Positions 4,770 through 29,639 of a DNA stretch of 64,000 nt are shown piece by piece. Numbering within the stretch: the stretch's first letter is position 1; each line of letters begins with the position of its first letter. The translations under genes were made by a program, and so were the position numbers. Source of the DNA: Candidatus Thorarchaeota archaeon (GTDB lineage Archaea; Asgardarchaeota; Thorarchaeia; Thorarchaeales; Thorarchaeaceae); the NCBI GenBank assembly GCA_030612365.1, contig JAUWOA010000001.1, forward strand, positions 7,184-71,183, given 5' to 3'. The notes under the pieces are model-generated. The model searched no databases. It had not been told where the DNA came from and was given only the letters and a program-made list of their open reading frames with translations.

Positions 4770-4774
4770 TTATC

Positions 4775-5335: not shown

Positions 5336-5674
5336 GTGACAGATGGCTCTGATAGAATCGAGACAGTCAAGATAACGACGGTCACGACTACACGAGTAAT
5401 CACTGCGGAGCTGAGGGTAACTGAAACAATCGAGCGTGTGGAGCAACTTCCGTCAATATCGAGAAACCGGTCTGCTGCAAGGATAAAGAAATATCTGATT
5501 ATGGGCGTGTTTTTGGATATTGCAGGTAATCTGCTTGCTGCAGTACTACAGTTGGGGTTGATACTGCAGAATGTAATCCCCTATGTCCTACTCAACCTAC
5601 TAGTGGCTATGGGCATAATCTTCGTGGTTCTGAGAGAACACAGAAGAGGTGCACATGATGCTGATTTGCCCTGA
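5336..5674 (+). CDS. hypothetical small membrane protein (112 aa)
   Basis: The C-terminal half is hydrophobic (LIMGVFLDIAGNLLAAVLQLGLILQNVIPYVLLNLLVAMGIIFVVL). Confidence 0.3.
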   Translation: MTDGSDRIETVKITTVTTTRVITAELRVTETIERVEQLPSISRNRSAARIKKYLIMGVFLDIAGNLLAAVLQLGLILQNVIPYVLLNLLVAMGIIFVVLREHRRGAHDADLP

Positions 5675-5858
5675 AACGCGATTCATGCATCCTCCTAATG
5701 CAACCAAGGAGATTGCTAAGCGAGGGCAAAAGGGGCAGGGCTCAAGTTCCTGTTTCGTGGGGCTTCGCTATGAATTTATTATCGATGCAAATACGTGCGC
5801 GCGTCTTCTCTTCCGACAATATGATGAAGATGGATGTGATTAGAATCTCAGAGGAAAA

Positions 5859-5901
5859 TGGTGGACTGGCTGAAACTCGAACTCGGCACCTCTTCCATGC
5901 C
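5859..5901 (-). repeat. Degenerate tRNA 3'-end fragment
   Basis: tggtggactggctgaaactcgaactcggcacctcttccatgcc has the acceptor-like ggtggac, the T-loop-like cgaactcg and cctcttccatgcc (compare cctcctccatgcc in tRNA-Ala). Confidence 0.45.
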
Positions 5902-5968
5902 ACCGAGGCTGATTCGAATGATTATAATAGAAATCATCATAGATGGACAGAACTGACAAGCACAAGAG

Positions 5969-6922: not shown

Positions 6923-6976
6923 GTCCATTGAGTAATGGATATACTTGGGCTGTCAAAGAGTACAACGAGCAGAGAA

Positions 6977-7012
6977 TGGTGAGCATCGAGATTTGAACGC
7001 GCGACCTCCTCA
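6977..7012 (-). repeat. Degenerate tRNA 3'-end fragment
   Basis: tggtgagcatcgagatttgaacgcgcgacctcctc. The T-stem no longer pairs, so this is a decayed copy. Confidence 0.45.
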
Positions 7013-7078
7013 TAGCAAGCCAAGAGGATCTCTCTACGGCTACATGCCAGAACTGGGTTCGCTCATTGATGCAAATCA

Positions 7079-8332: not shown

Positions 8333-8418
8333 TGTTTGCTTCCCCCGAATACATAGCTAGTGCATTATTCACGTTGATTTGACTCTTCCTTTGCATATTG
8401 GAAATCAGAAGAAGTGAT

Positions 8419-8452
8419 AGACCGGGTGGGATTTGAACTCGCGACCTCCTTC
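8419..8452 (-). repeat. Degenerate tRNA 3'-end fragment
   Basis: gaccgggtgggatttgaactcgcgacctccttcatgc. Confidence 0.45.
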
Positions 8453-8529
8453 ATGCAACGGGGAATGATTGGAGGAAAGACTAAGAGGAAGTTTTACTTG
8501 GAAACAGCAAGATTGGGCAAGAATCGGAG

Positions 8530-9669
8530 TTGAGTGATTTGCTTGGAACACTACTTGAACAGGAAGAGAACGATAGAATGGATTTCAAGGTATCTCTTCC
8601 ATTAGACAAACCGTCTCAGAGGAAGGAACTCGCAAAGGACATCTGTTGTTTCGCCAATTCGCAAGGAGGGCATTTGGTCATTGGAGTTGACAAAGATAGA
8701 ACACGAGTAGGAATACCCCCTGGCTCACTCAACGTGGATGTTATCTTGAAGGTGGCTCGTGAGAGAATTCGGCCTGCTGTTAATACTGCACAGGCTTGGG
8801 AGGAGGTGTGCGAAGAGATTACGTATGGTATTATTGCCATTGACAAAACACACCATGTACACCAGACAATCGAGGGTGTTCACTTCATTAGGGTCAAAGA
8901 TAATTGCATAAGAGCCGACACATCTGCTATTGTAGGTTTGGGGAACGAATCGAGAGAGCATTGGATTGCTGAAACTCGACGTCTACAGGAAGCAGAACGG
9001 CGCGACTTCATTGAAATAGAATCCACACAAGCGGATGCAATACTGAACAGGTTACTTGAGCAATGCTATGGGGACGGACTGGTCGAGCGCCTTTCCTCAT
9101 CGCGTCGGGAGAGGAAATGGCATCTCCGAAGCATGGTTGATTGTCGACTGAATGCATTCAAAGATGCTTGTAGCATAACCCTTGACCCAGAAAGTCCTGA
9201 GATTGATGAGATTCGAAACGACCTTCTACGAACAAGGGCAATAGGGATGTTGGCGATGGCGCATCTTGGAAGTAAGTCTGATGACAAAAACAGGAAAGTA
9301 CGTTTGATACTGGAATACGATCCAGAAGTTGATGCACAACGAGAGAGTGAGTATAAACAGGAGGCAGTACTAGAATGGGCTATGAAATTTAGGAATTACC
9401 AAGAAACAGAAGAGATTCCGACACATGATAGAGGTTTGCTCGAAGAATCTCTCAGATTGCTTGATCGCCTTACGCTGGAGAATGAAATGCGAAGCACTCA
9501 GATACAGCTCCTTAGAGATAATCCCAAGCTTATGTTGCTGTCGTGGGTTCTGCTGAGTTCTCTAGCCGTCGACTCCACATGGGATCTTTCATCTGGTAAC
9601 TCTCGATGGGTCCAGATTATTGAACGTGAACATCGTAACGCATGCAAGCAGACGCACACAAGTGAATAA
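8530..9669 (+). CDS. Schlafen/AlbA_2 ('divergent AAA', AAA_4-like) domain protein
   Basis: N-terminal MDFKVSLPLDKPSQRKELAKDICCFANSQGGHLVIGVDKD matches the AlbA_2/Schlafen core (the E/D-F-K ... ELAK.I.AFAN..GG.L.IGV pattern). Confidence 0.5.
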   Translation: MSDLLGTLLEQEENDRMDFKVSLPLDKPSQRKELAKDICCFANSQGGHLVIGVDKDRTRVGIPPGSLNVDVILKVARERIRPAVNTAQAWEEVCEEITYGIIAIDKTHHVHQTIEGVHFIRVKDNCIRADTSAIVGLGNESREHWIAETRRLQEAERRDFIEIESTQADAILNRLLEQCYGDGLVERLSSSRRERKWHLRSMVDCRLNAFKDACSITLDPESPEIDEIRNDLLRTRAIGMLAMAHLGSKSDDKNRKVRLILEYDPEVDAQRESEYKQEAVLEWAMKFRNYQETEEIPTHDRGLLEESLRLLDRLTLENEMRSTQIQLLRDNPKLMLLSWVLLSSLAVDSTWDLSSGNSRWVQIIEREHRNACKQTHTSE

Positions 9670-9680
9670 CAATGAAGGAG

Positions 9681-9706
9681 TGGTGGACCGGGGGTTCGAA
9701 CTCGTA
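9681..9706 (-). repeat. tRNA 3'-end fragment (acceptor plus T-loop only)
   Basis: tggtggaccgggggttcgaactcg. Confidence 0.45.
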
Positions 9707-10429
9707 CTACGGTGATTTTTTCTTTCGGCCTTTCTTCTTTGGTGGCTCACATTCCTTATCTAGTAGAAAATCTAATGTAAAGTTGAATATGCCATCAGCT
9801 GTTTTCCTGTCTACATTGAACCGCTTAGGATGAGCGGAGAAGATACGATACTGATTGACCAATTTGAGGAGGTGCTCGTAGTATGGAGGAATGCAATTCT
9901 TAAAAGCACTTTTATTTTTCAGATATGCATCCGCCAGCTGCCCAAGAGTGAATCTCAATCTCGGATTTATGGATTCTAGTGTTTTCTTGCTTCGTCTTTT
10001 TAGAATGAGGAATAATCGACTCTCTAAGGCAACAGCGGAATTAATTACTGCAGACCAACAACATCCTTCCATAAGGCAATGGAAAGATTCGTTAATCCTC
10101 TCGGATTCTTCAGACGTACATACCTTAAGCTGCTCAAGTTTAAATGAAGTAATCTTTGAGTATTCTTCTTCAATTTCACCTAGAATTTCTTGTAGTAATC
10201 CCCTATAATGAGGTGTTTTAGGAGCCCATTTATGGATTGGATCTTTTGTATGCTCGAATCCTTCATCCACTCTAGTTAAGAAATCTAGATAACTTCCAAC
10301 ACTATTTCGAAGCGACCAATAGTATCGGTAGTATGTAATTGATTCATACTCTTCGCTGTTTATCTCTTTGATTAGCGTGGATAACCACTTGTCAAGGTGT
10401 AGAACCACATCTATGTAGTTTCTCTTCAA
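9707..10429 (-). CDS. hypothetical protein (240 aa, Lys-rich C-terminus)
   Basis: ORF only. Confidence 0.35.
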   Translation of the reverse strand: MKRNYIDVVLHLDKWLSTLIKEINSEEYESITYYRYYWSLRNSVGSYLDFLTRVDEGFEHTKDPIHKWAPKTPHYRGLLQEILGEIEEEYSKITSFKLEQLKVCTSEESERINESFHCLMEGCCWSAVINSAVALESRLFLILKRRSKKTLESINPRLRFTLGQLADAYLKNKSAFKNCIPPYYEHLLKLVNQYRIFSAHPKRFNVDRKTADGIFNFTLDFLLDKECEPPKKKGRKKKSP

Positions 10430-10705
10430 ACTGAATCCCCTAGCAGCTAATAATCAGGTCCACTGATTTCCCTTTCTGGATTGAACCCGTTCAAATATAT
10501 TTCGGCAATCAATTGAATAATCAGATTCACTCCACAATTCCTTTAACCGTTCCATCCAGCATGCAACACAAATCGCACTTGTTGTGCAAAGGGCCAGTAG
10601 ATCCGCCCGATAGACTACTCCTTCATATTTCGTCGCTGTCAAGCGGAACCGGACAATAAGGCGTTCTGAACTGCCAACCCTTCAAGACAGCTTTGAAATC
10701 TCTAA

Positions 10706-11653
10706 TCAGAGGTGAGAATCGATGAGGTTGACAAACCAAGAGTAATCAAAGAGCACCATCTCATAGTCTGCTGTCAGTGCAAGTGTCGCCCTTTTCAGAT
10801 TGTCCTGCTGCAAATGCTGTCCAAGGATATTGAACGAGAGAACCATACCTATGTCAACGACCTTGGAGAGAAGCGCGAGATACCTCCTCAGTTCATTCTC
10901 CATCAATGCCGGTTTCTCAAAGAGATTTCTTCCATGAAGCATACCCCGACCTAGGTCGGTTTCTGAGGGCACGCTGTGAACAGATTTGGATAGATGCCCG
11001 TAGATACTGCGTAATTCATTTATCGGTATTGGGTTTGTGAATCCCCAGTTGTCGAGCTGGGTAACCATTTCACTCACTCTAGGGATGAGCCTGTAATGTC
11101 GCTGGTGGATTTGATACTTGTTTGTGATATCAAAGATGATGGCGGAACCTTGTTCCAGATGTCGCACCAATGCGGGCTCTGATTTTATCTCTCTTTTCAA
11201 AACATCGAGGAACCCTACTTTCTCATCGCCATCATGACCAATCCTAAGCTTTTGGTCCTTTATGTTGTATTCGTTTCTGAACTGCTCCTTGGCTATCGAG
11301 TCGAAGAATGCACCTCTGATCATGTTCTCCAAGACAATACGCAGAAGCAATGTAGCTATAGAGTACCTGAAGCCAAGGGCATTCTGAAGTGAAACCTTCA
11401 TGGTCTGAGTTGCCTCCCAGATGAGAATCAGGAACGCAGTACTCACTCTGTAGAGAGGGCTTCTATCCTCCTGCTTCAAGATGAGAGCATCCTGTACAGC
11501 GGCTAGGTTGCGGACTGGATTGAAATCGAGAACATCCATAGTCCTGCAGATGTCCAAAGACTCAGAAACACCAGCGGATGCTCTTTTCATCTCTTCTGTG
11601 ACAATCCATTTCAAATCGTTAAACTCATCTACGCTTTCATTCATCTGACTCAC
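10706..11653 (-). CDS. hypothetical protein (315 aa)
   Basis: ORF only. Confidence 0.35.
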   Translation of the reverse strand: MSQMNESVDEFNDLKWIVTEEMKRASAGVSESLDICRTMDVLDFNPVRNLAAVQDALILKQEDRSPLYRVSTAFLILIWEATQTMKVSLQNALGFRYSIATLLLRIVLENMIRGAFFDSIAKEQFRNEYNIKDQKLRIGHDGDEKVGFLDVLKREIKSEPALVRHLEQGSAIIFDITNKYQIHQRHYRLIPRVSEMVTQLDNWGFTNPIPINELRSIYGHLSKSVHSVPSETDLGRGMLHGRNLFEKPALMENELRRYLALLSKVVDIGMVLSFNILGQHLQQDNLKRATLALTADYEMVLFDYSWFVNLIDSHL

Positions 11654-11746
11654 ATTGCTGTAATTGGGTCTGTGCTTGGTTAAAGGATTTCATTGTACGA
11701 CACTGCAATCTTTGGTTAACTGCTCGAAAAGAAAAAGAGGAGAAAC

Positions 11747-11785
11747 GGTGAATCGGGCGAGATTCGAACTCGGGATCTCTTCCAT
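11747..11785 (-). repeat. Degenerate tRNA 3'-end fragment
   Basis: ggtgaatcgggcgagattcgaactcgggatctcttcc. The reverse complement shows T-arm cccgag-ttcgaat-ctcgc with one mismatch. Confidence 0.5.
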
Positions 11786-12376
11786 TTTGGATGCACGCGG
11801 AGTGCGTCGCAAGTGCCAGAGTAAGTCATAGATTCCTAAGGAACTTGGTAGCATGCTATGAATCTGAATTTGAAACCAAATGGCGTACGATATTCACCCT
11901 CATATCGATCTGGTTGCCCAGTAGGTCTAATCAATGAACCAAAAATGTATTCCAGACATTGATGAATCCAGGCTTCATTATCATGTCCATCAGAAGTTGT
12001 CCAAAGGAAACAAATCAATCCATAGCCCAAATCGTCAGCATGTACATATCTTACATCTGGGTGCATCGCCATTCTCTTACGCAGCCTTACTCGTTTGCCT
12101 GTTGAGAGGTCAGTCAAAGATATTCCCACGCTTTCAGGTCTTCAGTCCTGTACTATCGTGGATTCAGACTAGCACAGATTTCTCTCAGACATCATTCATT
12201 CTCATCCAAAAGCATTGAGATGCCTGATTCAGCTGCTCATTCCAACCCTTTAACGATTGCTCCAAACTATCTAGACGCAAATGAGAACAATTGCTTCCTT
12301 ACTCGCGAAATACAGGGATACTACACTCTGAATTTCTATATCGGTACGTTCAATTACTAGAGAAATTCGTACATGA

Positions 12377-13354
12377 TTGGAGTGGCAGTGTTTGCTTCAC
12401 GACTTAAAATCTGATTTTAAACGCATTGAGGCAATTGAGGACCCTCGAACTCGCGGTCTTAGATTCGAAGAATTCCTTACTCGAATATTCGATAATGAAG
12501 ATATTGATTTCAAAGGCAGATACAGACCAAGAAGTGAAGAGGTTGATGGAGCTATCTTTCTTTATGGACGAACATATTTAATCGAAGCAAGATGGAGAAA
12601 GGATCCCGAACCTGCTAGCGCAGTTTATGCTTTTCGTGGTAAAATTGAAGGAAAAATCGCTGGAACCCTTGGCGTATTTTGGTCAATTAACGGATATTCA
12701 GATAATTGTGTACCTACTGTAATAGCTGGTAAAACTCTCAATGTGCTCCTTTTTGACAGAACCGATCTTGAAGCGATTATTGAGGGGGAAATATCATTCA
12801 AAAAATTGCTGGAGAAAAAGACCATTGCTGCGGGAACAAAGGGGGATATATACCTCCCTTGGTCTACAATTAGCAAAGCGCGTATATTAAGAAAACACAC
12901 CGATGATCTAAGCTTATTTGCCATAGTTGAGGGGTATTATGCTGTCACTATTCTAACTTCTCTATTCAATTTCATATTTGATAAAACTAAGTACAAGCCT
13001 GTGATAATTCCATCCGAAGGAAAAGCCAATGTATTAACTCAAGCTCCGATTTATGCTACAATTCTATTCTCTAATCCAAATGCTTATTGTCTTGTAGTAA
13101 TGGACCGTGATGCTGATTCAATTGAGTTCGTTGACCGCTTTCAAGATAAATTGAAAAATGCAACAGGTCCCGGTAAGAACAGATTGCACCTTGCAGTTCC
13201 AAATCCCTCAATCTGGACTTGGTTGAATTTAAGTTTAAAACTTCCAAATCCAAAGCTTCAAGAAATCTTGAAGGATTTTGATTGGTCTGATGCGATTTCA
13301 AAACATTCAGACCTCGATTCACTAGTCGAATTCCTTAAACAGATTGAAACATAG
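12377..13354 (+). CDS. Mrr-like PD-(D/E)xK restriction-endonuclease domain fused to a Toprim-like C-terminal domain
   Basis: N-terminal FEEFLTRIFDNEDIDFKGRYRPRSEEVDGAIFLYGRTYLIEARWRK fits Mrr_cat (FE...GDgGiD...hhQcK). C-terminal CLVVMDRDADSIEF resembles the Toprim DxD region of OLD/DUF4276-like proteins. Confidence 0.5.
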   Translation: MEWQCLLHDLKSDFKRIEAIEDPRTRGLRFEEFLTRIFDNEDIDFKGRYRPRSEEVDGAIFLYGRTYLIEARWRKDPEPASAVYAFRGKIEGKIAGTLGVFWSINGYSDNCVPTVIAGKTLNVLLFDRTDLEAIIEGEISFKKLLEKKTIAAGTKGDIYLPWSTISKARILRKHTDDLSLFAIVEGYYAVTILTSLFNFIFDKTKYKPVIIPSEGKANVLTQAPIYATILFSNPNAYCLVVMDRDADSIEFVDRFQDKLKNATGPGKNRLHLAVPNPSIWTWLNLSLKLPNPKLQEILKDFDWSDAISKHSDLDSLVEFLKQIET

Positions 13355-13549
13355 TGTATCACAAGTTCGGTGGTCAGCAAGAAGTGGTAGACCACCTCTC
13401 TCATCTTCTTCTGGTGCATCACCTGTGAAGAAAGATTTCAATTTCGTAGCGAGATGTTGAAACCAAGAATTCTGCACATCATCTTCTTGGTTAAAGATAG
13501 TGGCTAATTTCACATACCCATGTAAAACAGGAATCTATGGGTCGTGAAG

Positions 13550-13590
13550 TGGTGGACCGGGCGAGATTCGAACTCGCGAGTTCCTTCAAA
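13550..13590 (-). repeat. tRNA 3'-end fragment
   Basis: tggtggaccgggcgagattcgaactcgcgagttccttc. Confidence 0.55.
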
Positions 13591-13606
13591 TTAAAGCCCA
13601 ATTCCT

Positions 13607-14554
13607 CTAATCAGGAGGTTCATCATGAAGTGAGAATGAAACCTCATAGTATTTGATACTAACAAGATCACTAACCACCGAAACTGCGTGATCCATTCTT
13701 TCATCACTCTCTGTACAGAGAATCAAGCCTTTCACGTTGTCATCTAGGTTTTCTCTGACCCAACCCATATACCGTAAAACCTGACCAACTGTTTCATCGG
13801 GGCTTTGTCTCTTCTTAAGTTCAATAACAAGATATGATTCATCCTCTCCTCTCTTTGCAAGGATGTCTATGTATCCTATAGGCCTACTAGATTCCCCATA
13901 GACCGGGTACTGCTGACCTATGCGCCCATCAGCATCAATGAAGACCTTGTATTCTCCATTAAATATTATATCCATATTCTTCACTACGAAATCTTCAAGA
14001 TGCGTTTCTAAGCGGAAGCCGACGATGTCTGAAGTTCCTTCTTCCTCCTCGATGTCTTTTACAAGATTCTGGTAGTAATCCTCATCAAAGAATCCAGTTA
14101 AAGTATTCATTCCGAACGTGATACTTCCGAACTCCACATTCAGTTCCTCCCATTCAACATCGATGAAGCGTGGATACGGAGTTGCACCATGGTCACCAAC
14201 TCGCTCCTTTCCCTTTTCCAAATCGAAATAAGCTTCACCAACTACAGTTCCTACAGCTAATAGAATCATTCTTCCCTTTCTAGCTAGGATTTTATCACCA
14301 AGTTTGATTTTGTGATGGAAGTTCCATATCGCGTTGGTATCTAACGATACTGCGTTTTGTCCCACAATATCAGGATAGTCCTCTCTCCATTCTGCTACCC
14401 TTTCCCAGAGATCATCCTTTTCAATATCTCCAATATCACCCAAGGATGTCCAACCAACCGCTATCGTTCCGTGTTTCAAATCATAATTCCAGACATGGTT
14501 GAACACTCTCCAATTCCGAGAAGCATACGGAGCAATAACCCAGTAGCGAGTCAT
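13607..14554 (-). CDS. N-terminal EVE/PUA-like domain fused to a C-terminal NucS/DUF91-type PD-(D/E)xK nuclease domain
   Basis: The C-terminus GYIDILAKRGEDESYLVIELKKRQSPDETVGQVLRYMGW matches the NucS C-domain pattern (IDLLA..G..vvVEVKRR..a..AVeQLlrY). N-terminal YWVIAP...WRVF...G.IAVGW is EVE/PUA-like. The N-terminal assignment is weaker. Confidence 0.5.
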   Translation of the reverse strand: MTRYWVIAPYASRNWRVFNHVWNYDLKHGTIAVGWTSLGDIGDIEKDDLWERVAEWREDYPDIVGQNAVSLDTNAIWNFHHKIKLGDKILARKGRMILLAVGTVVGEAYFDLEKGKERVGDHGATPYPRFIDVEWEELNVEFGSITFGMNTLTGFFDEDYYQNLVKDIEEEEGTSDIVGFRLETHLEDFVVKNMDIIFNGEYKVFIDADGRIGQQYPVYGESSRPIGYIDILAKRGEDESYLVIELKKRQSPDETVGQVLRYMGWVRENLDDNVKGLILCTESDERMDHAVSVVSDLVSIKYYEVSFSLHDEPPD

Positions 14555-14606
14555 ATTTCTATGAACGCTCTTAGGGGTATTTGTCTTTCTGGTACAACAT
14601 GATGCT

Positions 14607-14642
14607 TGTGGACCGGGCGAGATTCGAACTCGGGACCTCCAA
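14607..14642 (-). repeat. tRNA 3'-end fragment
   Basis: gtggaccgggcgagattcgaactcgggacctccaat. Confidence 0.55.
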
Positions 14643-14809
14643 TGTAATCTTTGAAGAGGCAGTTATTGTCCACAACAACCAAGCTATCTTTTCAACTGGA
14701 CTTCTGGGCTCCGGATAACCTAGCATCTCTTCTATGCTCAATCACTCCGACACTCCACTCTTTCTACCTTATCAGCAAATCTCCTGTTACATCAAGAAAG
14801 TGCGCCGCA

Positions 14810-16015
14810 TTAAGCTCTATGTTTTCTCGAGTCTTTCTGCAAAGTATGTACATTTTTCCTCATGAGAGCCAACGGAATTTTCCAAACCCAATTCTTATCA
14901 TGTTCCATTGCCTCTATCGAGCGATTGTTCATTTGGGTGTTTAGTGAGAGCAAATAGGACCCACGATTCAATACTTCATTTGGGTTATCGAAGTTATCGA
15001 AAATCCATTCAATGACTTCTGAAAGATTCTTACTGTGAAACGCATCCATTATTTCTCGATCAAATGATTCGCTTTTGTAATCAGCATATTTACGGGCCCA
15101 TTGGAAGAAATCATCATGGTATTTCTTATCCATCCCTTCAATATACATTCTGAATGCCATGGGATTAACCTTCAAATGGAGTTCTATTGGTTTCTTTTTC
15201 ATTTTTTCAGAGATGGTCTTACCACTCTGAAATTCACTAACTAATAATTCAGCCAATATTCCATAAGACCGAAATGCAATACTGTCCAGTATCTTTCGAT
15301 CCAATTCCAGTTGCTTACTAGTCGTTATTTCACTAGCTGCCAAAAACGCTCTACAAAATTTCTCGTATCGTTTCAAATTCAGAAAGGACATCTCCCTTTT
15401 CTCTTTTGAAAATAGAGAAGTCTGTTTACCCAGTAGGTTTTTGGAATAACGGTAAAGGAGTTTTTCAACTTGCCTGGTTTGCTGGTTAAGCAAGAGTGAA
15501 CCACTAGAAATAGGTAGAGAAACTTCACTCGAGTCCTCAATCTGAGCCTTTCTAATACGCTCCTGAGACTGTTTATTAGCTATTAATTCCATTTCAAAAA
15601 TCTGTTTCACTTTGGCGTACTGAGTAGTTTCACCTCTTCTTACCGGAACACGTCCTTGTTGAAGTTCGTGAACATATCCAGTTTTGGGAATCGATAGAAC
15701 CGCGATTACTTTGGTTTCAATATCCACGAAGTTTATGGCTAGATGTATAGGTGGGAAAACTCGAGAGTTTGAGATTTGATGAATGATAGAAGAATTGAAC
15801 GCTTTCTTATCAATACCAATCACTTCGCAATCCCCATTTCTAACACCAACTAGAATCCGACCACCGAAAGTGTTTGCCATTGCAGCTATATCCTTCGCCA
15901 ATTCCTTTTTTTCGGACTCCTTTGATAGGTTCAAGGTTACCTTAAAGTCCAGATTTTCACTCTCTCTACATTGTTGAATTATTCCTTTTACAACTTCATC
16001 CAAATCCTCTGACAT
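14810..16015 (-). CDS. Schlafen/AlbA_2 ('divergent AAA') domain protein, a second paralogue
   Basis: N-terminal NLDFKVTLNLSKESEKKELAKDIAAMANTFGGRILVGVRNGDCEVIGIDKK. Confidence 0.5.
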   Translation of the reverse strand: MSEDLDEVVKGIIQQCRESENLDFKVTLNLSKESEKKELAKDIAAMANTFGGRILVGVRNGDCEVIGIDKKAFNSSIIHQISNSRVFPPIHLAINFVDIETKVIAVLSIPKTGYVHELQQGRVPVRRGETTQYAKVKQIFEMELIANKQSQERIRKAQIEDSSEVSLPISSGSLLLNQQTRQVEKLLYRYSKNLLGKQTSLFSKEKREMSFLNLKRYEKFCRAFLAASEITTSKQLELDRKILDSIAFRSYGILAELLVSEFQSGKTISEKMKKKPIELHLKVNPMAFRMYIEGMDKKYHDDFFQWARKYADYKSESFDREIMDAFHSKNLSEVIEWIFDNFDNPNEVLNRGSYLLSLNTQMNNRSIEAMEHDKNWVWKIPLALMRKNVHTLQKDSRKHRA

Positions 16016-16355
16016 CTGATCTCACCACTGACAATGTATTTCTCGCTGTAATAACACGCCACAATTCTTTTGGCCATATCATCCAGCACTGCAAATCGCT
16101 CACACATGCAACCAACGGACCGGTAGATAAGCCCCGTAGATCGTTTCCTAACCCCTACCAGTACCAATCATCGTGGTCTACCCACTGCATCATGATGCCA
16201 GCAATGCAATATCAATCTATCATACGTTTTGGTGCGTATTCTGCTATTGCTGTATTCATCATTTGTCTTACAGCATCAATTGAGTTCATGCCAAGCTAGA
16301 TGGTTGATTAAAAGGATATCATCATTAGTGATAATTATGATAACAACAGAATTGG

Positions 16356-16955
16356 GTGAGTACCTTGGACAAGAGAGAAGCGTATGCTAAATGTATGAAG
16401 GCAAGTCTTCGAAATGCTGAGATGTGGCTAAAGGAAGCTGGACTGATTGCCAAGCACGGAAGTAGTTGTCATGCTCAGGCTCTAACAATCTTTGCTTACG
16501 AGGAAGTTGGTAAGTCCTTCATGTGCTGGCTAGTTGTAAACAGTGTAATGCCCTTCAATCATCCTGATGTAGATTTTGCGAATCGAGGAAGCATATTCAA
16601 GAAACACTCCCTCAAGAGCAGCACGACATTTGCAATTCTTACTGCGGCTAGGCGGTACCAAAAGAAGGTTGGTGAAGATTTGAGAAAGCGTTTTGCAAGT
16701 ATGGGGGATGCCGCAACCAGAACTCGGTCTATCTACATGTATACAGATATCAAACGAGGACGTAAAGGACTTGAAATCATCAATCCATTGATGCAACCAA
16801 CTGCCATTGAAGCTGCATTGAATGAAGTTGCCCTTGCCATAAGAGAGCTAAAGATGTTCTTCAAGCTCACACCCGAGATTGGCTACATCTTTGAGAAGGG
16901 ACGGATAGAAGCAGAAGAGCATGATGAAAAATGGCCTGAAGACCCAGAGTGGTGA
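16356..16955 (+). CDS. HEPN-domain protein (AbiV-like)
   Basis: Rx6H motif in DFANRGSIFKKHSLK, plus a predicted alpha-helical N-terminus (MWLKEAGLIAKHGSSCHAQALTIFAYEEVGKSFM). Confidence 0.4.
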   Translation: MSTLDKREAYAKCMKASLRNAEMWLKEAGLIAKHGSSCHAQALTIFAYEEVGKSFMCWLVVNSVMPFNHPDVDFANRGSIFKKHSLKSSTTFAILTAARRYQKKVGEDLRKRFASMGDAATRTRSIYMYTDIKRGRKGLEIINPLMQPTAIEAALNEVALAIRELKMFFKLTPEIGYIFEKGRIEAEEHDEKWPEDPEW

Positions 16956-16987
16956 TATGATGGAATGCAATTAGAAGAAGCAGTAGT

Positions 16988-17021
16988 CAGGCGAAACTAG
17001 AATTCGGGATCTCCTCCAAGC
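16988..17021 (-). repeat. Highly degenerate tRNA 3'-end fragment
   Basis: caggcgaaactagaattcgggatctcctccaagcc versus consensus gcgagattcgaactcgggacctcc. Confidence 0.35.
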
Positions 17022-22830: not shown

Positions 22831-25389
22831 TTGGAAAAGAACTACAAGAATCAGGTGTATGCGATCGAGATTACTGAGATTCCTAGGTCCTACTTCGAGC
22901 ATGCCATGAAGCATCTTGAGAAAAAAGCCTCCAGTCCGACACATGTCAAGCTTGAGAGATTCCTAAGTTCTCTTTCACACACGGATGTCCCAACTGGATT
23001 CAGGATTCAAGGGTTAGGAGGGAATGCTCGACTGCTCTACGTTACAAGAGGTACTAGGTCGAATATGGAAGCCATCAAGGAGAGCTTTGCAGCGCACTTC
23101 CCTGAGTTCGTGGTCCAGTCCTTATCCGAAGTTGGGTGCCCTTTGGTGGCTGGACAAGCGAATGCTGCGTTATTGACCGGAGTTCCCCAGCCAGCTGTCC
23201 AAGCATTGCAGGCAATGACAGAGATTATGGTCAACTTCAAAGGTAATTCATTATACCAAGTCTGGATGGTTCCTGCGGGGCCAAGTAGGGTTAAACGAAT
23301 TCTTGCAAAGAAGCGCTACAGGTCTGCTTTGGAGGGCTCCCAGAGGCAAAAAACGACTCAGACTTGGCTGGGGGGTCAAGAAACTGCAACACAGGCTGAT
23401 GTAAACGCCAAGATGAGCCTCAAACATCTTGAGAGAAACTATGAGAGATCAATCTCGAATCGCATTCTGAAATGTCAAGTCACATTGGCATTCTGGGATC
23501 GACCGGATTCGGAAGAGAAGCTGAGAACTGCTGTGAACGCATTGCTTGCAGCACTCTCATCCAGCCACAGAAACGCCAGGATGAAGGTCAGGTTTCTCTC
23601 AGGTAAGATTGCCCAAGAAGTGATTCGGAAGACGCTCATGCTAGAAAGGAGGAGGATGACAACTGAACTGCTGCCGAAAGAAGCGGTTTCATTGGTTGAA
23701 ACCCCCAGTGTCGAAGTGGGGACAAGAGTAGGCAGCCCAGCATCATTTTCAACATCTGGTAGCAAAACAACACAACCGACATCAGAGACCCTAGAATTCC
23801 AAACTGACCATATCGCTCTCGGTCATGTATTCCGTCACAACACTGTTGACAAGTCACGAACGAAGCTCATCGAGATGGAGCAACTTAGACTCCACACGGC
23901 CATCGTAGGAATGTCAGGGTCAGGAAAGAGCACTACAAAGAACAGGATTGTCATCGACGCCTGGAGGAACGGAATTCCTAGTCTGTTGATTGAGCCGGTG
24001 AAAGCCGATGCACGCATTCTCATGGGTGCCATTCCTGAGATGCGCATCTTCACGGTGGGCCGGGAGGATGTGGCTCCCTACCGCCATAATCCGTTTCTGA
24101 TTGACGCGAACGTGCCAGTTCAACTTCACATTGACTTGCTCTACTCATGTTTCTTGGCTGCATGGCCACTCTACGGCATTCTTGCTAACCATTTGCGCAA
24201 GGTGATAAATCGGACGTACAAGCATAATGGATGGGATTTGCTCAACAATCGTCCGGGAAAAACCATCACGCTGGACATGTTTCTAGAGGAAGCAGAAACC
24301 TATTCACGAAACCTCAGATATGGTGCGGAACTCAAGAAAGACTTCGAAGGAGCAATTGTGGCCAGAGCTCAGGATCTCTGTGACCAATCGCGCGCGGCAA
24401 TTCTCAACGCTGAAAGGAACTTACCAATCGATGAGCTGCTCTCAAAGCCAACCATCATCGAGCTGAAGCACATTGGTGACCCTAGCTTCAAAGCCCTTAT
24501 GCTTAGTCTCCTTATCATTCGTGTTTACGAATTCTTCGACAAGCTTGGTCCCGCGAATAAGCTCCGCAATCTGCTTGTAATCGACGAGGCGCATAGCTTC
24601 CTTGAAGAACTGCCCAGAATTGCGGACATGAGTGAGGGCGCAGTCTCAAGAAGGCAAGTTCTTGACCAGCTGTTGAACCTAATTGCAGAGGCTAGAAGTT
24701 CGGGACTTGGGCTTGTGATAGCTGACCAGAACCCTGCGCGTCTATCGCGTGATGCTCTCAAGACCTGCAACACTAAGATTGTACATCGTCTTACGAGTCC
24801 AGAGGATTGGGACTTGCTTGGTCGGGAAACAGGTTGTACTCCAGAGCAGGCACGGCACATAGGCGTTCTGAAGAACGGAGAGATTGTTCTACGTTTGCCT
24901 TCTGACGATGTTCCGACCAAGGTAAAGGTGTTCCATGACCCTGAGTTTCACCCCGACATGAAACAGAATTGGACAGATGATGATGTAAGAAGAAGAATGA
25001 AACTATTCTATGATACACATCTAGATTTTGCCATAACACCAAGAGCACCACAACTTGAATCCGGAACCAACAGAGATGACATAGTCCAACTAGCACTTCT
25101 GGTGGAAGATGTGGTTCAGGATGATGATTTTCGCAGACTGTATCTCGCATCAATAGGTGTCAAGGGCCAGGACGACACAGCACACCGAGTCGAAGAGGTA
25201 ATCGCCTTCTACGCGGCCAGCCTTCAGGTTCCGAACCTGAACCCGATTGAGTTCGCGTGGGTGCTCTTGAAACGATCAGTAGAGGTTCTTGGAGCGCCCT
25301 CCAACCCTCCAGACCGTGACTTGGTGGCTAAGCTAGTGGGTGATAACCTGCAATCGGGCTTGACTCCGCCCGAGAGCGGAGGGGTTTGA
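22831..25389 (+). CDS. HerA/FtsK/VirB4-like (DUF87-type) P-loop ATPase with ~330-aa N-terminal extension
   Basis: Walker A AIVGMSGSGKSTT. Walker B LLVIDEAHSFL. HerA-type motif LVIADQNPARLSRDALKTCNTKIVHRLTS (the QRP....QCNT.I..RL pattern). Confidence 0.65.
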   Translation: MEKNYKNQVYAIEITEIPRSYFEHAMKHLEKKASSPTHVKLERFLSSLSHTDVPTGFRIQGLGGNARLLYVTRGTRSNMEAIKESFAAHFPEFVVQSLSEVGCPLVAGQANAALLTGVPQPAVQALQAMTEIMVNFKGNSLYQVWMVPAGPSRVKRILAKKRYRSALEGSQRQKTTQTWLGGQETATQADVNAKMSLKHLERNYERSISNRILKCQVTLAFWDRPDSEEKLRTAVNALLAALSSSHRNARMKVRFLSGKIAQEVIRKTLMLERRRMTTELLPKEAVSLVETPSVEVGTRVGSPASFSTSGSKTTQPTSETLEFQTDHIALGHVFRHNTVDKSRTKLIEMEQLRLHTAIVGMSGSGKSTTKNRIVIDAWRNGIPSLLIEPVKADARILMGAIPEMRIFTVGREDVAPYRHNPFLIDANVPVQLHIDLLYSCFLAAWPLYGILANHLRKVINRTYKHNGWDLLNNRPGKTITLDMFLEEAETYSRNLRYGAELKKDFEGAIVARAQDLCDQSRAAILNAERNLPIDELLSKPTIIELKHIGDPSFKALMLSLLIIRVYEFFDKLGPANKLRNLLVIDEAHSFLEELPRIADMSEGAVSRRQVLDQLLNLIAEARSSGLGLVIADQNPARLSRDALKTCNTKIVHRLTSPEDWDLLGRETGCTPEQARHIGVLKNGEIVLRLPSDDVPTKVKVFHDPEFHPDMKQNWTDDDVRRRMKLFYDTHLDFAITPRAPQLESGTNRDDIVQLALLVEDVVQDDDFRRLYLASIGVKGQDDTAHRVEEVIAFYAASLQVPNLNPIEFAWVLLKRSVEVLGAPSNPPDRDLVAKLVGDNLQSGLTPPESGGV

Positions 25390-28104
25390 GTGGGTTCCCG
25401 ATTCAAAGGGATTGAATCAAAGACCAAGGCGCAGCTTAGGAGGGAGCTAGCATCTAAATTAACAGAAGCTGCTCAGGAGTTCCAAAGAAAACAGAAACTG
25501 AAGAAGAGAGAGAAGAAGCACCTTCACGGTGACCTTCCCAAAGACCACAAGCCTATCGTGTCAGATGCGTACTTGGTCGATAGGAAGAAGTTCGATGAAT
25601 GGATTGAACGTGAGTGGAAGCATATGTTTCCCACCGGAAATAAGAAACGTTCAAGCAGGTTTTCTGCTTCCGAAGTGAAGGACTCAGGGAAGGGCTTGTT
25701 ACGAACCATTGCTGAAGCCTTCAGATTCTCAGTTGCTCGCAAGAGTGACGATAGCTCGAGTGAAAAAAACAAGGATTCCCACGATCGAGAGGAGCAAAGC
25801 AAACCGACCAAGAAAGCCAAGCGAGAGTCAACCTCTGGCGTTGAATCCGCACAGGAAAAGCGGTCTAGACCTTCAGGTTCAGATGCTAAGAAAAACAGAA
25901 CGGCATCGGAAACTCGGAGGGATTCAAAGGAGCGGCATCATCGCAGGTCGAGAACGGAACGACCTGAATCCAAGATGACCAAGAGAGAGAAAGATGTTGG
26001 ACAAGTCAGAGTAATTCGTTCAATGGAAGACTTCAATCGAGCACTCAAGAGATACCCGGAATTCCGCTATAGAGAGAACTTCGAGAAAGAGTATGGCAGG
26101 ATAAGACAGTATTTTGAATCAGACGAAAGCCGTCGAAGACATACTCCAAAACTTCTATCATTCATTGAGAGGAAGGAGCTGCATCTTGCATATGAAAGAG
26201 ATGTTGGCCACCCCCCAGAAGTCAAAATAGAAGGTATGAAGGATGTAGACAAATTACTTGGCAAACATGACAATCGACAACAATGGAAAGGCTTCAAAGA
26301 AGATTATCGGATGGCAACGGTGTACTTCGAAGTCAGATTTAGTCGCGAAAAGACAACGGAACTAGCAAAGATTCACAATGTCCCCCAAAAAAGAATTGGC
26401 GTATTCAAGAAGTTAGCGGAATCAGCTCTAGTATCTTCTCTACGTAGAATGGAAGAACGAAGGATTGTAGAGAAGTGGGCGGAATCCAATCTGGAGTCAC
26501 ACCTTAGGGCTTTGGACAAGCAGGTTTCAGAGAAGAGAGAGAAGACACCATCTCCTAGAGAATCATCAATCAATCCGATTTCGCCCGTAGATGCGACTCA
26601 CATTTATGACAAGCTCTCCAAGATAGGAGAAGGGGATCTCAAAGCTGGAAGGCTAACAGATGCAGCTGTAGAGATGGCCGGAATGATAGCTGAAGGCAAA
26701 GCTGGTCTATCTTTCATTGAAATTGACAAGATTGGTCTAAAGAAGCAGGACGTTAGGAATCTAACGCGAATCATCGAAGACAAGCACCAAGATGTTGAAT
26801 CCGCCCTTCAAGAACGACTTGAGCTAGGTTCTACTAACTGGGAATTCCGATTTGGGATTGCTGAAAATCGGATTTATCTGTGGAAGTTGAATAAGACGCT
26901 TAACGACATGCTGAATGTCTGGTCTGACCATTATTTCTACTTCAATCGGGTTGACATCGTGAAAATGCTAGATGATTTCGGAAGAAAACTTCAACTCCCT
27001 GATGGCAGATCACACGAAATTAGGCATTTCAACGGAATGATACAATCCTTGGTTTCAGAGGTCGCAGCAGCCCAGGTTAAAGTTGAACGTGGGCAATCAC
27101 GTTTGAGGGGGGATGTGCTTCATCTCTATCGTGATGTGGTTGGGCTTGACAATCTCGATTTCCATGGCAAGATGGTTAAGGTGGCTTCAAGACTGGGTCG
27201 TGGTCCAATCTATAACCCAAAGATTCCCACCGGAAAGGAACTTGAGCTTCTTAGAAGCCAATTCGGCGCGGCGGTGAATAGCGACTGTTGGCTAGGTGGC
27301 GATGGCCGAATGTATTACTATGAAGCTGACCTTAGCCGAATTAAGATAGTCCAGGAACAGCTTCAGAAGCTAGGTGATATTGAATTGCGACTGCAACCTA
27401 TGACGGGACGAAGCTATCGGATGCTCTTACCTCGGCCGATTGGTAAGGCTTTCATATCTTGGGAATTCGCCACAGATGACAAGTCTATCAAAAACGAACG
27501 GCTGTCGAGATTCGTTCGAAAGGGAAACCGTAATGTTTGGATTGCCTATCACAAGAATCTCATTCCAGAGGATGGCTCTATCACTGAAGAAACAGGATTT
27601 CAGTGGAGTAGGTCTATTGTACTTAATCCTGGAATTCAAGATGCGAAATATGGCTTAAGGCCACAACTGTCTGAACAAGATATCTCCATCATCAGAGAAA
27701 ACGGTAGACGTGATAAAAAGAGGGGATACATTCACCTTCAACTCAGTGCGTTCCTGAAATCCGATAATGAATCGAAGTCTGAAGCAATTGAGAGAATGGA
27801 ATCTGTGATATCAAGCAATAGAAGTAGGCTCATTGACGATGAATCTGACTTGGCAGAGAAACTTGGAATAAAAATGAGAGTCTATCCAGAGAGCATCACG
27901 CTGTATGAAGGAACAGGTAGAGTATCGATAAAATGGGTCGCAAAGACAAAGGATACAGAAAATGCAATCAGATGGTGGCTCTTGGCTCCTCCCAATGATG
28001 TAAGGAAGAATGGAATCGTGAAGAACTGGCTTCTAAAAAAGCTGGGTGCTGTTCAAAGAGTGCAAAGACAGCTTGAGGATGAAGGACTACTGAAAAAGAA
28101 GTGA
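25390..28104 (+). CDS. Large partner protein (904 aa) of the HerA-like ATPase. Lys/Arg/Glu-rich N-terminal ~200 aa. No recognised domain.
   Basis: GTG start at 25390 directly abuts the upstream TGA at 25387-25389, which indicates translational coupling. Its stop at 28102-28104 abuts the tRNA-Ala 3' end. Confidence 0.55.
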   Translation: MGSRFKGIESKTKAQLRRELASKLTEAAQEFQRKQKLKKREKKHLHGDLPKDHKPIVSDAYLVDRKKFDEWIEREWKHMFPTGNKKRSSRFSASEVKDSGKGLLRTIAEAFRFSVARKSDDSSSEKNKDSHDREEQSKPTKKAKRESTSGVESAQEKRSRPSGSDAKKNRTASETRRDSKERHHRRSRTERPESKMTKREKDVGQVRVIRSMEDFNRALKRYPEFRYRENFEKEYGRIRQYFESDESRRRHTPKLLSFIERKELHLAYERDVGHPPEVKIEGMKDVDKLLGKHDNRQQWKGFKEDYRMATVYFEVRFSREKTTELAKIHNVPQKRIGVFKKLAESALVSSLRRMEERRIVEKWAESNLESHLRALDKQVSEKREKTPSPRESSINPISPVDATHIYDKLSKIGEGDLKAGRLTDAAVEMAGMIAEGKAGLSFIEIDKIGLKKQDVRNLTRIIEDKHQDVESALQERLELGSTNWEFRFGIAENRIYLWKLNKTLNDMLNVWSDHYFYFNRVDIVKMLDDFGRKLQLPDGRSHEIRHFNGMIQSLVSEVAAAQVKVERGQSRLRGDVLHLYRDVVGLDNLDFHGKMVKVASRLGRGPIYNPKIPTGKELELLRSQFGAAVNSDCWLGGDGRMYYYEADLSRIKIVQEQLQKLGDIELRLQPMTGRSYRMLLPRPIGKAFISWEFATDDKSIKNERLSRFVRKGNRNVWIAYHKNLIPEDGSITEETGFQWSRSIVLNPGIQDAKYGLRPQLSEQDISIIRENGRRDKKRGYIHLQLSAFLKSDNESKSEAIERMESVISSNRSRLIDDESDLAEKLGIKMRVYPESITLYEGTGRVSIKWVAKTKDTENAIRWWLLAPPNDVRKNGIVKNWLLKKLGAVQRVQRQLEDEGLLKKK

Positions 28105-28181
28105 TGGTGGACCGGGTGAGATTCGAACTCACGACCTCCTCCATGCCAAGGAGGCATTCTACCAGGCTGAACTACCGGCCC
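28105..28181 (-). tRNA. tRNA-Ala (anticodon GGC), genomically encoded CCA
   Basis: The reverse complement is GGGCCGGTAGTTCAGCCTGGTAGAATGCCTCCTTGGCATGGAGGAGGTCGTGAGTTCGAATCTCACCCGGTCCACCA. Acceptor stem is 7 bp with a G3:U70 wobble, which is the alanine identity element. T-arm is GTGAG/TTCGAAT/CTCAC. Anticodon stem is CCTCC/GGAGG with loop TTGGCAT. Confidence 0.85.
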
Positions 28182-28265
28182 ATGTTGTTAGTTTGCAAAT
28201 CCTAAGAGAACGGTTAAAAGAATTGTGGAGTGCTATCCTATTTCGAGCATAAGGTAGTTGATAGT

Positions 28266-29207
28266 TTATTCTAATTTGTCCATTGAAGTGAGGATGGGTT
28301 CATCATCTGTATTGTACTTCATCCTGACTGGAGGACCATAGTGGTGTAGCAACCAATCTAATTGTGGCACTTGGAATCGTGTTACAAACGTAACAACTTG
28401 AGAAAGGAAATGTAATAATCCGAGTCTTTCTGTTCCTGTTTCATCATCTAGAATGATCTCTGTCAGGTGCAATGGTTTATCCCAATGGTCACAAGGTCGC
28501 ACGAGTCGTTGGCTTCTTTCATAACCGAATACCCAACCAAGGGTAACATCTTTGTCATGAACATAAATCAAGTCGAAAAACGATTTCGGATTGATTTGGG
28601 CTCGCTTGATATTGGTTCGCACTGCTTTTTTAATGGACTTGGTATTCTTCCATCCGCTTTTGAAGGCGAAGATGAAGGATGTAGGCCATCCAATATAATA
28701 ACGCTCACCCCAACTTGCGGGCGTCACTAATGGACGAATTAGCTTAAGTTCTGTTCTAGTAGAATGAATGTTGTCAATTGCATCTCTTACTTTGTCTTTC
28801 AGAGTAGTCTTAACCTCAATAGTAGCAACAGCTGAATCAATTGGAATGAACTTGTTAGTTTTATTAGATTCTTCAGGAGTTTCAAATACAATGTATGGGT
28901 GAGAGAAGCGATCATAGATTATCACATCATTTTGCTTTGACTGGACACCATTTCTATCAATTAGGAATCCTTCCACAATTCCAAATTTAGGTGGCAGGTA
29001 TTTTTTAAGCAACTTTCGAATAATAGTTTCATTCGATTCTCCTTTTGCTTGGTTCTGTGCAATCACGTCATTCATGGCGGTTTCCGACTTTAGCCATGAT
29101 TCTCGCCAAGCCCGATTTTTCTTCAGGAAATGTGCGCTCTCAATTGCTTCAGTTTCCCTCGATGTTTCATCCTTAGATTCTTCTTCTGGCAACTTGAAAC
29201 TCTCCAT
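28266..29207 (-). CDS. hypothetical protein with possible PD-(D/E)xK restriction-endonuclease-like core
   Basis: VIIYDRF...FIPIDSAVATIEVKTTL follows the D ... hhhhEhK pattern. Assignment is weak. Confidence 0.35.
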   Translation of the reverse strand: MESFKLPEEESKDETSRETEAIESAHFLKKNRAWRESWLKSETAMNDVIAQNQAKGESNETIIRKLLKKYLPPKFGIVEGFLIDRNGVQSKQNDVIIYDRFSHPYIVFETPEESNKTNKFIPIDSAVATIEVKTTLKDKVRDAIDNIHSTRTELKLIRPLVTPASWGERYYIGWPTSFIFAFKSGWKNTKSIKKAVRTNIKRAQINPKSFFDLIYVHDKDVTLGWVFGYERSQRLVRPCDHWDKPLHLTEIILDDETGTERLGLLHFLSQVVTFVTRFQVPQLDWLLHHYGPPVRMKYNTDDEPILTSMDKLE

Positions 29208-29639
29208 CTACGAAATACACCGGAATAAGAAAGGGTTTCCATTCCTGTCTGCGCAATATCCTCTGTTTAGCGTAGAGGCGTCCGGTCCACCATTACTTCT
29301 TTTCCAGTAGTCCTTCATCCTCAAGTTGTATTTGTACTCCTTGAATAGCACTTGGTTTTTTCGATAACCAGTTCTTCACGATTACGTTCTTCCTTACATC
29401 ATTTGGAGGAGCTAAGAGCCACCATCTGATTGAATTTCCTGCATCCCTTATCCGAATTAAACCCCAAGGCGATCTGAGGATTAACCTGTCCCATTTGTCT
29501 TAGTGGATGGTCGGAAGTAGTTCCAGTACAAACCTGCGTATCTCTTCATACTTATATGCTAACATCGCCTTAACAACCACGACGGGCTTTTTTCGTCAGA
29601 AACTACAGTACAACATAGGCGATTCCTGAGGTAACATCG

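Follow-up and report, generated by a model that had tools for sequence, protein, structure and literature searches.

A HerA-clade ATPase gene coupled to the gene for a predicted LAGLIDADG-fold protein at a tRNA-Ala junction in Thorarchaeota

In the present study, a 64,000-nucleotide stretch of DNA from Candidatus Thorarchaeota archaeon (contig JAUWOA010000001.1 of assembly GCA_030612365.1, positions 7,184 to 71,183 of the forward strand; hereafter, the window) was analysed with a focus on two adjacent genes that end at a tRNA-Ala gene. The upstream gene (22831..25389, + strand) encodes a P-loop ATPase of the HerA clade, and the downstream gene (25390..28104, + strand) encodes a partner of 904 amino acids (aa), which structural modelling presents as a multidomain DNA-binding, nuclease-like protein. 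Judged from their sequences, the ATPase and the partner are a genuine, conserved and translationally coupled module. Moreover, a tight association of the partner with tRNA-Ala recurs among loci, and the junction between them has been duplicated, inverted and allelically replaced. Herein, we propose, with a probability of about 0.4, that this pair might act as a cut-and-translocate module, cleaving at a specific site and thereby initiating recombination at the tRNA junction.

Results

Searches started from both genes recovered the order ATPase-partner in approximately 15 independent archaeal loci (the window, L001, L002 with a truncated ATPase, L003, L009/10, L011, L024/25, L026, L027, L029, L031, L032, L038, L051 and L053), with ATPase identities ranging from 25 to 95%. 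The two genes usually overlap or abut, including those in L003, L009, L027, L029, L051 and L053. In the window, the coupling junction (25378..25392, + strand) contains a Shine-Dalgarno-like GGAGGGG run at 25378-25384, located 6-12 nt upstream of the GTG start codon of the partner at 25390, which directly follows the TGA stop codon of the ATPase at 25387-25389. The start of the ATPase gene is ambiguous, giving 852 aa from the first TTG (22831) or 844 aa from GTG 22855, the start called in the orthologue of L001. Since both genes have homologues under purifying selection, neither is a chance open reading frame (ORF); the ratio of nonsynonymous to synonymous substitution rates (dN/dS) is 0.31 for the partner and 0.09-0.12 for the ATPase, whose core (0.05) is more strongly constrained than its N-terminal domain (0.35). 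A first-pass annotation, prepared from the sequence, had described the ATPase with its coordinates, length and motifs, the abutting stop and start codons, and the contact of the partner stop with the tRNA 3' end, and all of these are confirmed herein; the two genes that it had read as a pair do co-occur in other genomes.

The partner matched no Pfam, NCBIfam, PADLOC or PHROGs model, and the sole Pfam match at E<=1 was a sub-threshold ubiquitin-like domain (E 0.04, 14.5 vs 24.5 bits). The fold was more informative. An alignment of 32 sequences yielded an AlphaFold (AF2) model of residues 200-904 with a pLDDT of 86.4 and a pTM of 0.71, and the C-terminal ~260 residues matched LAGLIDADG homing endonucleases in the PDB (Foldseek probability 1.00; PI-SceI, E 2e-4). 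As placed by the AF2 model, Foldseek and a profile, the monomeric two-lobed fold would occupy 27223..27969 (+ strand, residues ~612-860). Further PDB fold matches comprised the TliVMA and PI-PfuI intein endonucleases, I-Tsp061I, I-DmoI and I-SceI, and weakly WhiA (E 0.13), and a Foldseek search of BFVD matched viral homing endonucleases at 4e-6. Independent support came from a sequence profile of this region, in which both motifs aligned in register with those of the VMA intein endonuclease of T. litoralis (7qsu/7qss; E 0.005). LAGLIDADG Pfam models gave no match at E<=1 for the partner of the window and none at E<=0.01 among the 32 family members. The first motif reads GAAVNSDC, with D632 encoded at 27283-27285, and the second reads NLIPEDG, with E727, D728 and G729 encoded at 27568-27576. 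Across 24 diverse relatives, the putative catalytic acids are retained, D632 being invariant and D/E728-G729 conserved, and very distant relatives show fully canonical motifs, e.g. SDGHI and FADGDGS. The first-pass annotation had found no recognisable domain in the partner, which is wrong at the fold level, where helix-turn-helix (HTH) domains and a LAGLIDADG fold appear in the model. The statement that the partner resembles neither NurA, SIR2 nor DUF4297 was upheld, as no Pfam, NCBIfam or PADLOC match to any of these was observed and the predicted fold is that of LAGLIDADG enzymes.

Upstream of this fold, the model contains two further regions. A helical region (26023..26538, + strand, residues ~212-382, model helices 13-183) includes a predicted HTH resembling sigma-70 region 4; some partner-family members match Sigma70_r4 at 6.9e-11 and also HTH_3, and the region gave no significant PDB fold match. 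It is followed by an α/β middle domain (26578..27189, + strand, residues ~397-600, model pLDDT 84), which is part of the minimal core common to all members of the family and which, as modelled, is novel, with no significant structural match (best PDB E 0.16). The N-terminal region, delimited by the alignment (25390..26004, + strand, residues 1 to ~205), is rich in K, R, E and S, is probably disordered, and is confined to the clade in which the ATPase has no transmembrane (TM) helices. This region evolves almost freely (dN/dS 0.28-0.33). An unusual conservation of the disordered N-terminus was considered and rejected, because the window and L001 are close relatives (~93% nucleotide identity) and dN/dS between them is 0.33. 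The partner family comprises ~32 homologue clusters, all from Thorarchaeota or Hermodarchaeota; these were found using an alignment of the C-terminal core, and a full-length alignment, including the low-complexity N-terminus, yielded none new. On IMG/VR contigs, the partner family has no representatives, and the ATPase has remote HerA matches only.

The ATPase belongs, according to all profile libraries, to the HerA clade of the FtsK/HerA superfamily, as a DNA motor of the hexameric type. A ~330-aa N-terminal domain is followed by Walker A (GMSGSGKST), Walker B (LLVIDEAHSF) and a C-terminal HerA-type core with the motif ADQNPARL...CNTKIVHRL. The profile matches included PADLOC HerA (2e-15), NCBIfam CedD (1e-13) and HerA_antiphage (5e-12), all of which fall far below the curated cut-offs. 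The PADLOC HerA and mad8 models match the protein at 1e-14 to 1e-15, and PDB HerA chains at 4e-13 to 1e-12. In Pfam, the TraG P-loop domain ranks first; for the window protein, DUF87 and HerA_C stay below threshold, and DUF87 is precomputed for the ATPases of L009 and L011. The equivalog models likewise scored below cut-off (27.8 vs 970 bits for NF040819 and 45.1 vs 800 bits for NF042943), as did CedD (50.6 vs 600 bits), and CedB reached 13 bits, in L009 only. An exhaustive phmmer search placed the protein in a family of 1628 representative clusters at E<1e-30, most of which are 900-1100 aa long and carry 130-170 additional N-terminal residues. The ~330-aa N-terminal domain is common to many members of this family. 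The first-pass annotation had named profile and structure searches of the partner and of this domain as the way forward; those of the partner gave a fold, whereas a 15-sequence profile of the N-terminal domain, for which canonical HerA typically has a HAS barrel, found no sequence match in the PDB. Distant ATPases precede unrelated genes, encoding a conserved ~200-aa protein in L040, L041, L047, L049 and L050 (metagenome contigs) and a protein of 591-663 aa in L035 and L037; across the wider ATPase family, the partner thus seems to differ from lineage to lineage.

Six distinct loci have a membrane-anchored ATPase before the partner, and four of them show a larger arrangement. A four-gene operon, consisting of two membrane-protein genes, a membrane-anchored ATPase gene and the partner gene, was observed in L009/10, L011, L051 and L053. 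The first gene encodes a ~210-aa protein with a signal peptide and two TM segments, the second encodes a 5-6-TM protein of ~270 aa, and the ATPases of these operons carry 2-4 N-terminal TM helices. The membrane proteins matched no CedA, VirB6 or pilin model. In L044, two membrane-protein genes also precede the ATPase, and the contig ends inside the ATPase gene, leaving no partner visible. The ATPases of L026, L027 and L028 are likewise membrane-anchored. The ATPases of the window, L001, L003 and L022-25 have no TM helix and no accompanying membrane-protein genes, and the window-type clade consists of two genes only. Genes for ribosomal protein L2 and ftsZ come directly after the four-gene operon in L053 (6599-8904); the proximity to ftsZ may be coincidental or a hint of a link to cell division.

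The ATPase is accessory to the partner and not obligatory. Seven loci carry the partner without the ATPase (L005, L006 with two copies, L007, L008, L058/59, L060/61 and L062). In L002 (8648-10000), the ATPase orthologue is 5'-truncated and lacks the N-terminal 405 residues, including Walker A, and the downstream partner is intact; this truncation is probably recent, because the remaining part still shows a dN/dS of 0.09 relative to the window. The first-pass annotation had proposed a HerA-dependent two-component system. The conserved pair agrees with the two components, whereas strict dependence is contradicted by the seven solitary partners and the truncated ATPase of L002. Two side observations concern single loci of the partner family. 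L011 and L060 represent the same syntenic site (POR/TPP, MFS and MCH genes), occupied by the four-gene operon in one and by the partner alone in the other, and this site is the second locus that varies in the presence or absence of the ATPase. In L012 (2485-2610), a 5S rRNA-like sequence, judged by eye, lies ~60 nt downstream of a distant partner homologue.

The stop codon of the partner (TGA, 28102-28104) touches the 3' end of the tRNA-Ala(GGC) gene, placed by ARAGORN at 28105..28181 on the - strand. This arrangement is recurrent: nine distinct loci (the window, L001, L002, L003, L005, L006, L008, L058/59 and L062) have a spacing of 0-8 nt between the partner stop codon and the 3' end of a tRNA-Ala gene, with partner identities of 38-87%. 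The adjacent tRNA-Ala gene is intron-less in the window and L002, has ~33 nt inserted in its D-arm region in L001, and carries larger or multiple insertions in other genomes (coordinates compared: window 28105-28181, L001 12710-12900, L005 11447-11640, L058 9549-9720 and L062 8796-8900). ARAGORN misses all interrupted copies, and Rfam barely detects that of L001 (30.5 bits). The structure of the tRNA-Ala gene goes with the partner allele, each allele having its own.

Copies of this junction were also found elsewhere in the window. A direct remnant (2885..3034, + strand, tblastn 3e-17) contains the last 34 codons of the partner and the 3' half of tRNA-Ala, and is of the L001 allele type, with 93% nucleotide identity to L001. 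An inverted remnant (29282..29452, - strand, tblastn ~1e-18) contains the last ~55 partner codons and 11 nt of the tRNA 3' end, and forms a 171-nt inverted repeat of 85% identity with 27945-28115 that flanks the tRNA-Ala and a DUF6602 gene. An equivalent inverted remnant is present in L002, and inverted tRNA halves lie beyond the tRNA, on its far side, in L008 and L058. In addition, 1683..17018 (+ strand) contains an array of diverged direct repeats of the 3' half of tRNA-Ala, with eight copies that each extend from the CCA end to the anticodon stem/loop (~38-44 nt) and lie at 1683-1719, 2995-3034, 5858-5898, 8415-8454, 11746-11785, 13550-13588, 14606-14641 and 16986-17018. These copies bound small defence-like cassettes, and in L001, L002 and L003 the gene pair is likewise accompanied by a similar array. 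Among the 19 ORFs scanned, out of 20 of >=150 aa in window positions 1-29500, no integrase and no tyrosine or serine recombinase was observed; for the 401-aa ORF at 14810-16015 the scan was limited to E<=0.01, and the 420-aa ORF at 18280-19542 gave no significant match. The idea of a partner stub at every tRNA-half repeat was tried and rejected, since only the copy at 2995 has one; for the others, any similarity is confined to a short purine-rich run.

The comparison of the window with L001 revealed a replaced tract of 3.2 kb (26268..29487, bounded by blastn high-scoring segment pairs). The two sequences are ~93% identical over 22763-26268, covering the ATPase and partner codons 1-293, and again from 29487 on. 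At partner residue ~300, the identity to L001 falls from ~0.9 to ~0.5, and synonymous sites are saturated. The tract extends from this residue to the end of the partner and includes the tRNA, the DUF6602 cassette and the inverted remnant; the DNA-binding and nuclease domains of the partner thus lie inside, and the tRNA gene is intron-less in the window and intron-bearing in L001. The partner-tRNA junction is ~1.8 kb from the left edge and 1.4 kb from the right edge. The GC content of the tract is island-like (0.43-0.44), and that of the ATPase is core-like. From this pattern of identity and GC content, it follows that the motor and the N-terminal third of the partner are long-term residents. 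The specificity-and-nuclease half has been exchanged as an allele together with its tRNA.

The closest relatives of the window in a scan of genome contigs were Candidatus Thorarchaeota metagenome-assembled genomes. The right side of the tRNA is flanked by conserved core DNA with LSM, PUA, DEAD helicase, aCPSF1 and proteasome genes, which is syntenic in L001, L002, L005, L006 and L058; the left side is flanked by a region of low GC content (0.40-0.44 vs 0.47-0.52 in the core). The cassettes on the left side encode PLD/DrmC-like, deaminase, Schlafen/AlbA_2, Mrr, PD-(D/E)xK (PDC-S02), HEPN-AbiV and HNH proteins, and island ORFs also match PDC-S50 and DUF6602/NucC-like models. The defence-rich island and the tRNA attachment end described in the first-pass annotation were borne out by these nuclease-, HEPN- and Schlafen-type cassettes and by the eight tRNA-half copies. 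L002 and L008 share with the window the DUF6602/NucC-like PD-(D/E)xK nuclease gene (28266..29207, - strand) that lies between the tRNA-Ala gene and the inverted remnant of the partner, and L001 lacks it; this gene behaves as a cassette of its own, 5' of the tRNA.

Several other features of the region were also noted. A NosD/β-helix protein with hydrophobic segments at both termini is encoded directly upstream of the ATPase (21456-22643, + strand), and β-helix proteins were also found near the partner homologues of L060 and L062. A degenerate tandem repeat with a 12-nt period and nine overlapping 65-nt copies (4773-4967) lies just downstream of a deaminase-domain ORF (3133-4695). A DEAD/ResIII helicase gene encoding 896 aa (31500-34190, - strand) is also present in L002, L005, L006 and L058 and is cleanly missing from the ~93%-identical L001, where the blastn alignment skips from window position 31632 to 34243.

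Discussion

The proposal of a site-specific cut-and-translocate module is based on the retention of the catalytic acids, the pairing of the two genes, the link to the tRNA junction, the conversion-like mosaic between the window and L001, the autonomy of the partner, and the absence of a recombinase among the ORFs scanned. In this module, the HTH and LAGLIDADG domains of the partner would bind a long, specific DNA site, at which the partner would introduce a nick or a double-strand break. The ATPase would dock via the N-terminal half of the partner, a half found mainly in loci with an adjacent ATPase gene. Once loaded at the break, the ATPase would translocate along the DNA or unwind it, in the way that HerA does for NurA. 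The DNA end would then be resected and channelled into homologous recombination. For the window clade, the target may lie at or beside the junction of the partner 3' end and the tRNA-Ala 3' half, and because the site is placed at or near this junction, the module would act as a homing endonuclease that promotes local recombination, in effect a free-standing homing endonuclease with a motor. Repair of the break would copy the module, the tRNA half and neighbouring cassettes into related chromosomes. The module might also stimulate recombination between tRNA-half repeats, and such recombination could help to build and reshuffle a cassette island that has no integrase.

The processing of the partner's break by a motor is suggested by the likeness to HerA-NurA, in which a HerA-clade ATPase gene is also coupled to a nuclease gene and the motor plausibly feeds or opens DNA for the nuclease. 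The differences are nevertheless considerable: the partner has no NurA match in Pfam or NCBIfam and is predicted to combine a LAGLIDADG fold with HTH domains, the ATPase of the window has a different ~330-aa N-terminal domain and scores 28 bits against a HerA cut-off of 970, and HerA-NurA is a universal repair operon, whereas the present module is accessory and lineage-restricted. The partner model shares with LAGLIDADG homing endonucleases two pseudo-symmetric αββαββα lobes, two motif helices ending in acidic residues, and a DNA-binding β-saddle. Unlike these enzymes, the partner is neither intron- nor intein-encoded, is 500-975 aa long with extra HTH and α/β domains, has no Pfam LAGLIDADG match, is coupled to a motor ATPase, and lies beside rather than inside a tRNA gene. 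A precedent from Asgard archaea is HeimM2 of Heimdallarchaeum, a mobile element that sits precisely beside a tRNA gene and carries a homing-endonuclease homologue, whose co-option for site-specific integration was proposed by Wu et al. (PMC8813620). Compared by description only, HeimM2 differs in its lineage, in its target between the 16S rRNA gene and tRNA-Arg, and in that no HerA-type ATPase is reported. The direct repeats of the tRNA 3' part that bound inserted DNA in the window (eight copies and the tRNA itself) are those of tRNA-targeting integrative elements, from which the window differs in that no tyrosine or serine integrase was found among the ORFs scanned in positions 1-29500.

A number of observations weigh against this proposal. 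Its main weakness is that an integrase acting in trans could explain the tRNA-half array without the partner, and the stretch from the CCA end to the anticodon stem/loop is also the classic footprint of the att sites of tyrosine integrases. No cleavage site of the partner could be inferred, only one of the eight tRNA-half repeats has a convincing partner remnant, and the repeats show no age gradient of the kind expected from serial integration, the most distal copies not being the most decayed. The distant pairs (L009, L011 and L025-L053) are not beside tRNA genes, and the membrane-anchored ATPases and two membrane proteins of several of them are unexplained by pure homing. The ATPase and the 5' part of the partner look long-resident and vertically inherited rather than freshly mobile. 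Finally, the contact between the ATPase and the partner is itself a proposal, and we know of no homing endonuclease that works with a HerA-type motor.

Among the alternatives, a role in defence against viruses or plasmids is a possible, though less probable, explanation. A HerA-type hexamer with a LAGLIDADG effector would sense or translocate on invading DNA and cut it, and allelic replacement of the DNA-recognition and nuclease half would diversify its specificity. The pair lies in a hotspot rich in defence-like cassettes, the ATPase matches the PADLOC HerA and mad8 models, and its PDB matches are mostly HerA chains from complexes of the SIR2-HerA or DUF4297-HerA type, which resemble the present pair in the ATPase core (E 5e-12 to 2e-15), in having two genes and in occupying a defence-type island. 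The partner family is patchy and fast-evolving, with the specificity half swapped and the motor kept, and an AbiTii-like neighbour in L009 and STAND/TPR and LRR neighbours in L001 fit the same picture. However, the partner is neither SIR2 nor DUF4297, no PADLOC model matches it, the ATPase scores 45 of the 800 bits required for the antiphage family, and the partner often occurs without the ATPase, being intact in the seven solitary loci and beside the truncated ATPase. Defence also leaves the tight, conserved abutment to tRNA-Ala unexplained, and some copies lie among housekeeping genes (rpl2/ftsZ in L053; POR/MCH in L011 and L060). To our knowledge, no LAGLIDADG enzyme acts as an immune effector, and the long, specific sites of these enzymes suit homing rather than broad immunity. 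The defence role suggested in the first-pass annotation drew on the neighbourhood, which was confirmed; the LAGLIDADG fold, the tRNA-Ala abutment and the replaced tract that spans the junction point at least as strongly to homing or recombination as to defence.

The membrane-anchored relatives raise another alternative, which we consider unlikely, namely DNA translocation resembling the Ced system or type IV secretion, in which DNA would be moved by a membrane-anchored HerA/CedD-like ATPase together with a polytopic channel protein and a protein anchored at the surface, the LAGLIDADG/HTH protein would process or recruit this DNA (as an analogue of a relaxase or entry nuclease), and the window copy would be a soluble, reduced derivative. 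The operons of L009, L011, L051 and L053 have a layout analogous to that of Ced, L044 shows the same layout with no partner visible, TM helices also occur in the ATPases of L026, L027 and L028, CedD is the best characterised NCBIfam relative across the ATPase family (1e-11 to 1e-17), and TraG is the top Pfam match. CedD of Sulfolobales, which has a TM domain, an uncharacterised N-terminal domain and a HerA/VirB4-like ATPase, is required for DNA import (PMC11868833), and the relatives of the present ATPase share this layout together with membrane-protein neighbours. Nevertheless, all scores are far below the family cut-offs (42-64 vs 600 bits), the membrane proteins have no detectable homology to those of Ced and no CedA, CedA1 or CedA2 homologue is recognisable, soluble ATPases without membrane-protein genes occur in the window, L001, L003 and L022-25, no pilus-assembly, relaxase or plasmid genes lie nearby, and no LAGLIDADG protein is among the Ced components described in PMC11868833. 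A caution in the first-pass annotation, that the partner might be a conjugation (VirB/Ced) component, touches the ATPase, with CedD as its closest characterised relative and with membrane-anchored family members, and does not touch the partner. Least probable of all is that the partner is a non-catalytic DNA-binding factor of the WhiA kind that acts with an FtsK-like motor in chromosome segregation, site-specific resolution or regulation. WhiA is among the fold matches and likewise joins a LAGLIDADG scaffold to a sigma-r4-like HTH, L053 lies beside ftsZ, and the ATPase and the partner 5' part are syntenic with core-like GC content. The domain order of WhiA is, however, the reverse of that of the partner, and WhiA has lost its catalytic acids; a non-catalytic role is unlikely because the catalytic residues are conserved throughout the partner family. 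The patchy distribution even inside Thorarchaeota, the allelic replacement, the ATPase truncation in L002 and the elevated dN/dS also speak against such a role.

Returning to the cut-and-translocate proposal, a more far-reaching version of it, which we regard as improbable, is that a LAGLIDADG nuclease and a HerA-type motor form the recombination engine of an integrase-less platform for cassette capture, a functional analogue of the integron. Cutting would occur at the tRNA-Ala half-site, and repair through short tRNA-half homologies would insert, invert and swap defence cassettes, which would explain the direct and inverted tRNA-half arrays beside the partner in several Thorarchaeota genomes. 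The membrane-anchored four-gene relatives might then couple the nuclease to DNA uptake, as a dedicated import-and-integrate system of Asgard archaea.

Full-text literature searches found no description of LAGLIDADG proteins linked with HerA-type ATPases, nor of the partner family, and the pairing of the ATPase with this partner appears to be undescribed. A HerA-type motor with a nuclease partner is already known as a theme, and the LAGLIDADG partner is new within it. Should the nuclease prove active and cooperate with the motor, it would become the first example of a LAGLIDADG enzyme serving as the dedicated partner of a HerA/FtsK-type ATPase and would add a new class of effector to the theme. 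LAGLIDADG enzymes with long sites and natural allelic variants of specificity would also be raw material for genome engineering. Moreover, the membrane-anchored relatives hint at Ced-like DNA translocation beyond Crenarchaeota, and there is a small chance that a categorically new mechanism is involved, either cassette capture without an integrase or import and integration. The module is also a concrete, testable candidate for the machinery by which Asgard archaea assemble genomic islands at tRNA genes without an integrase.

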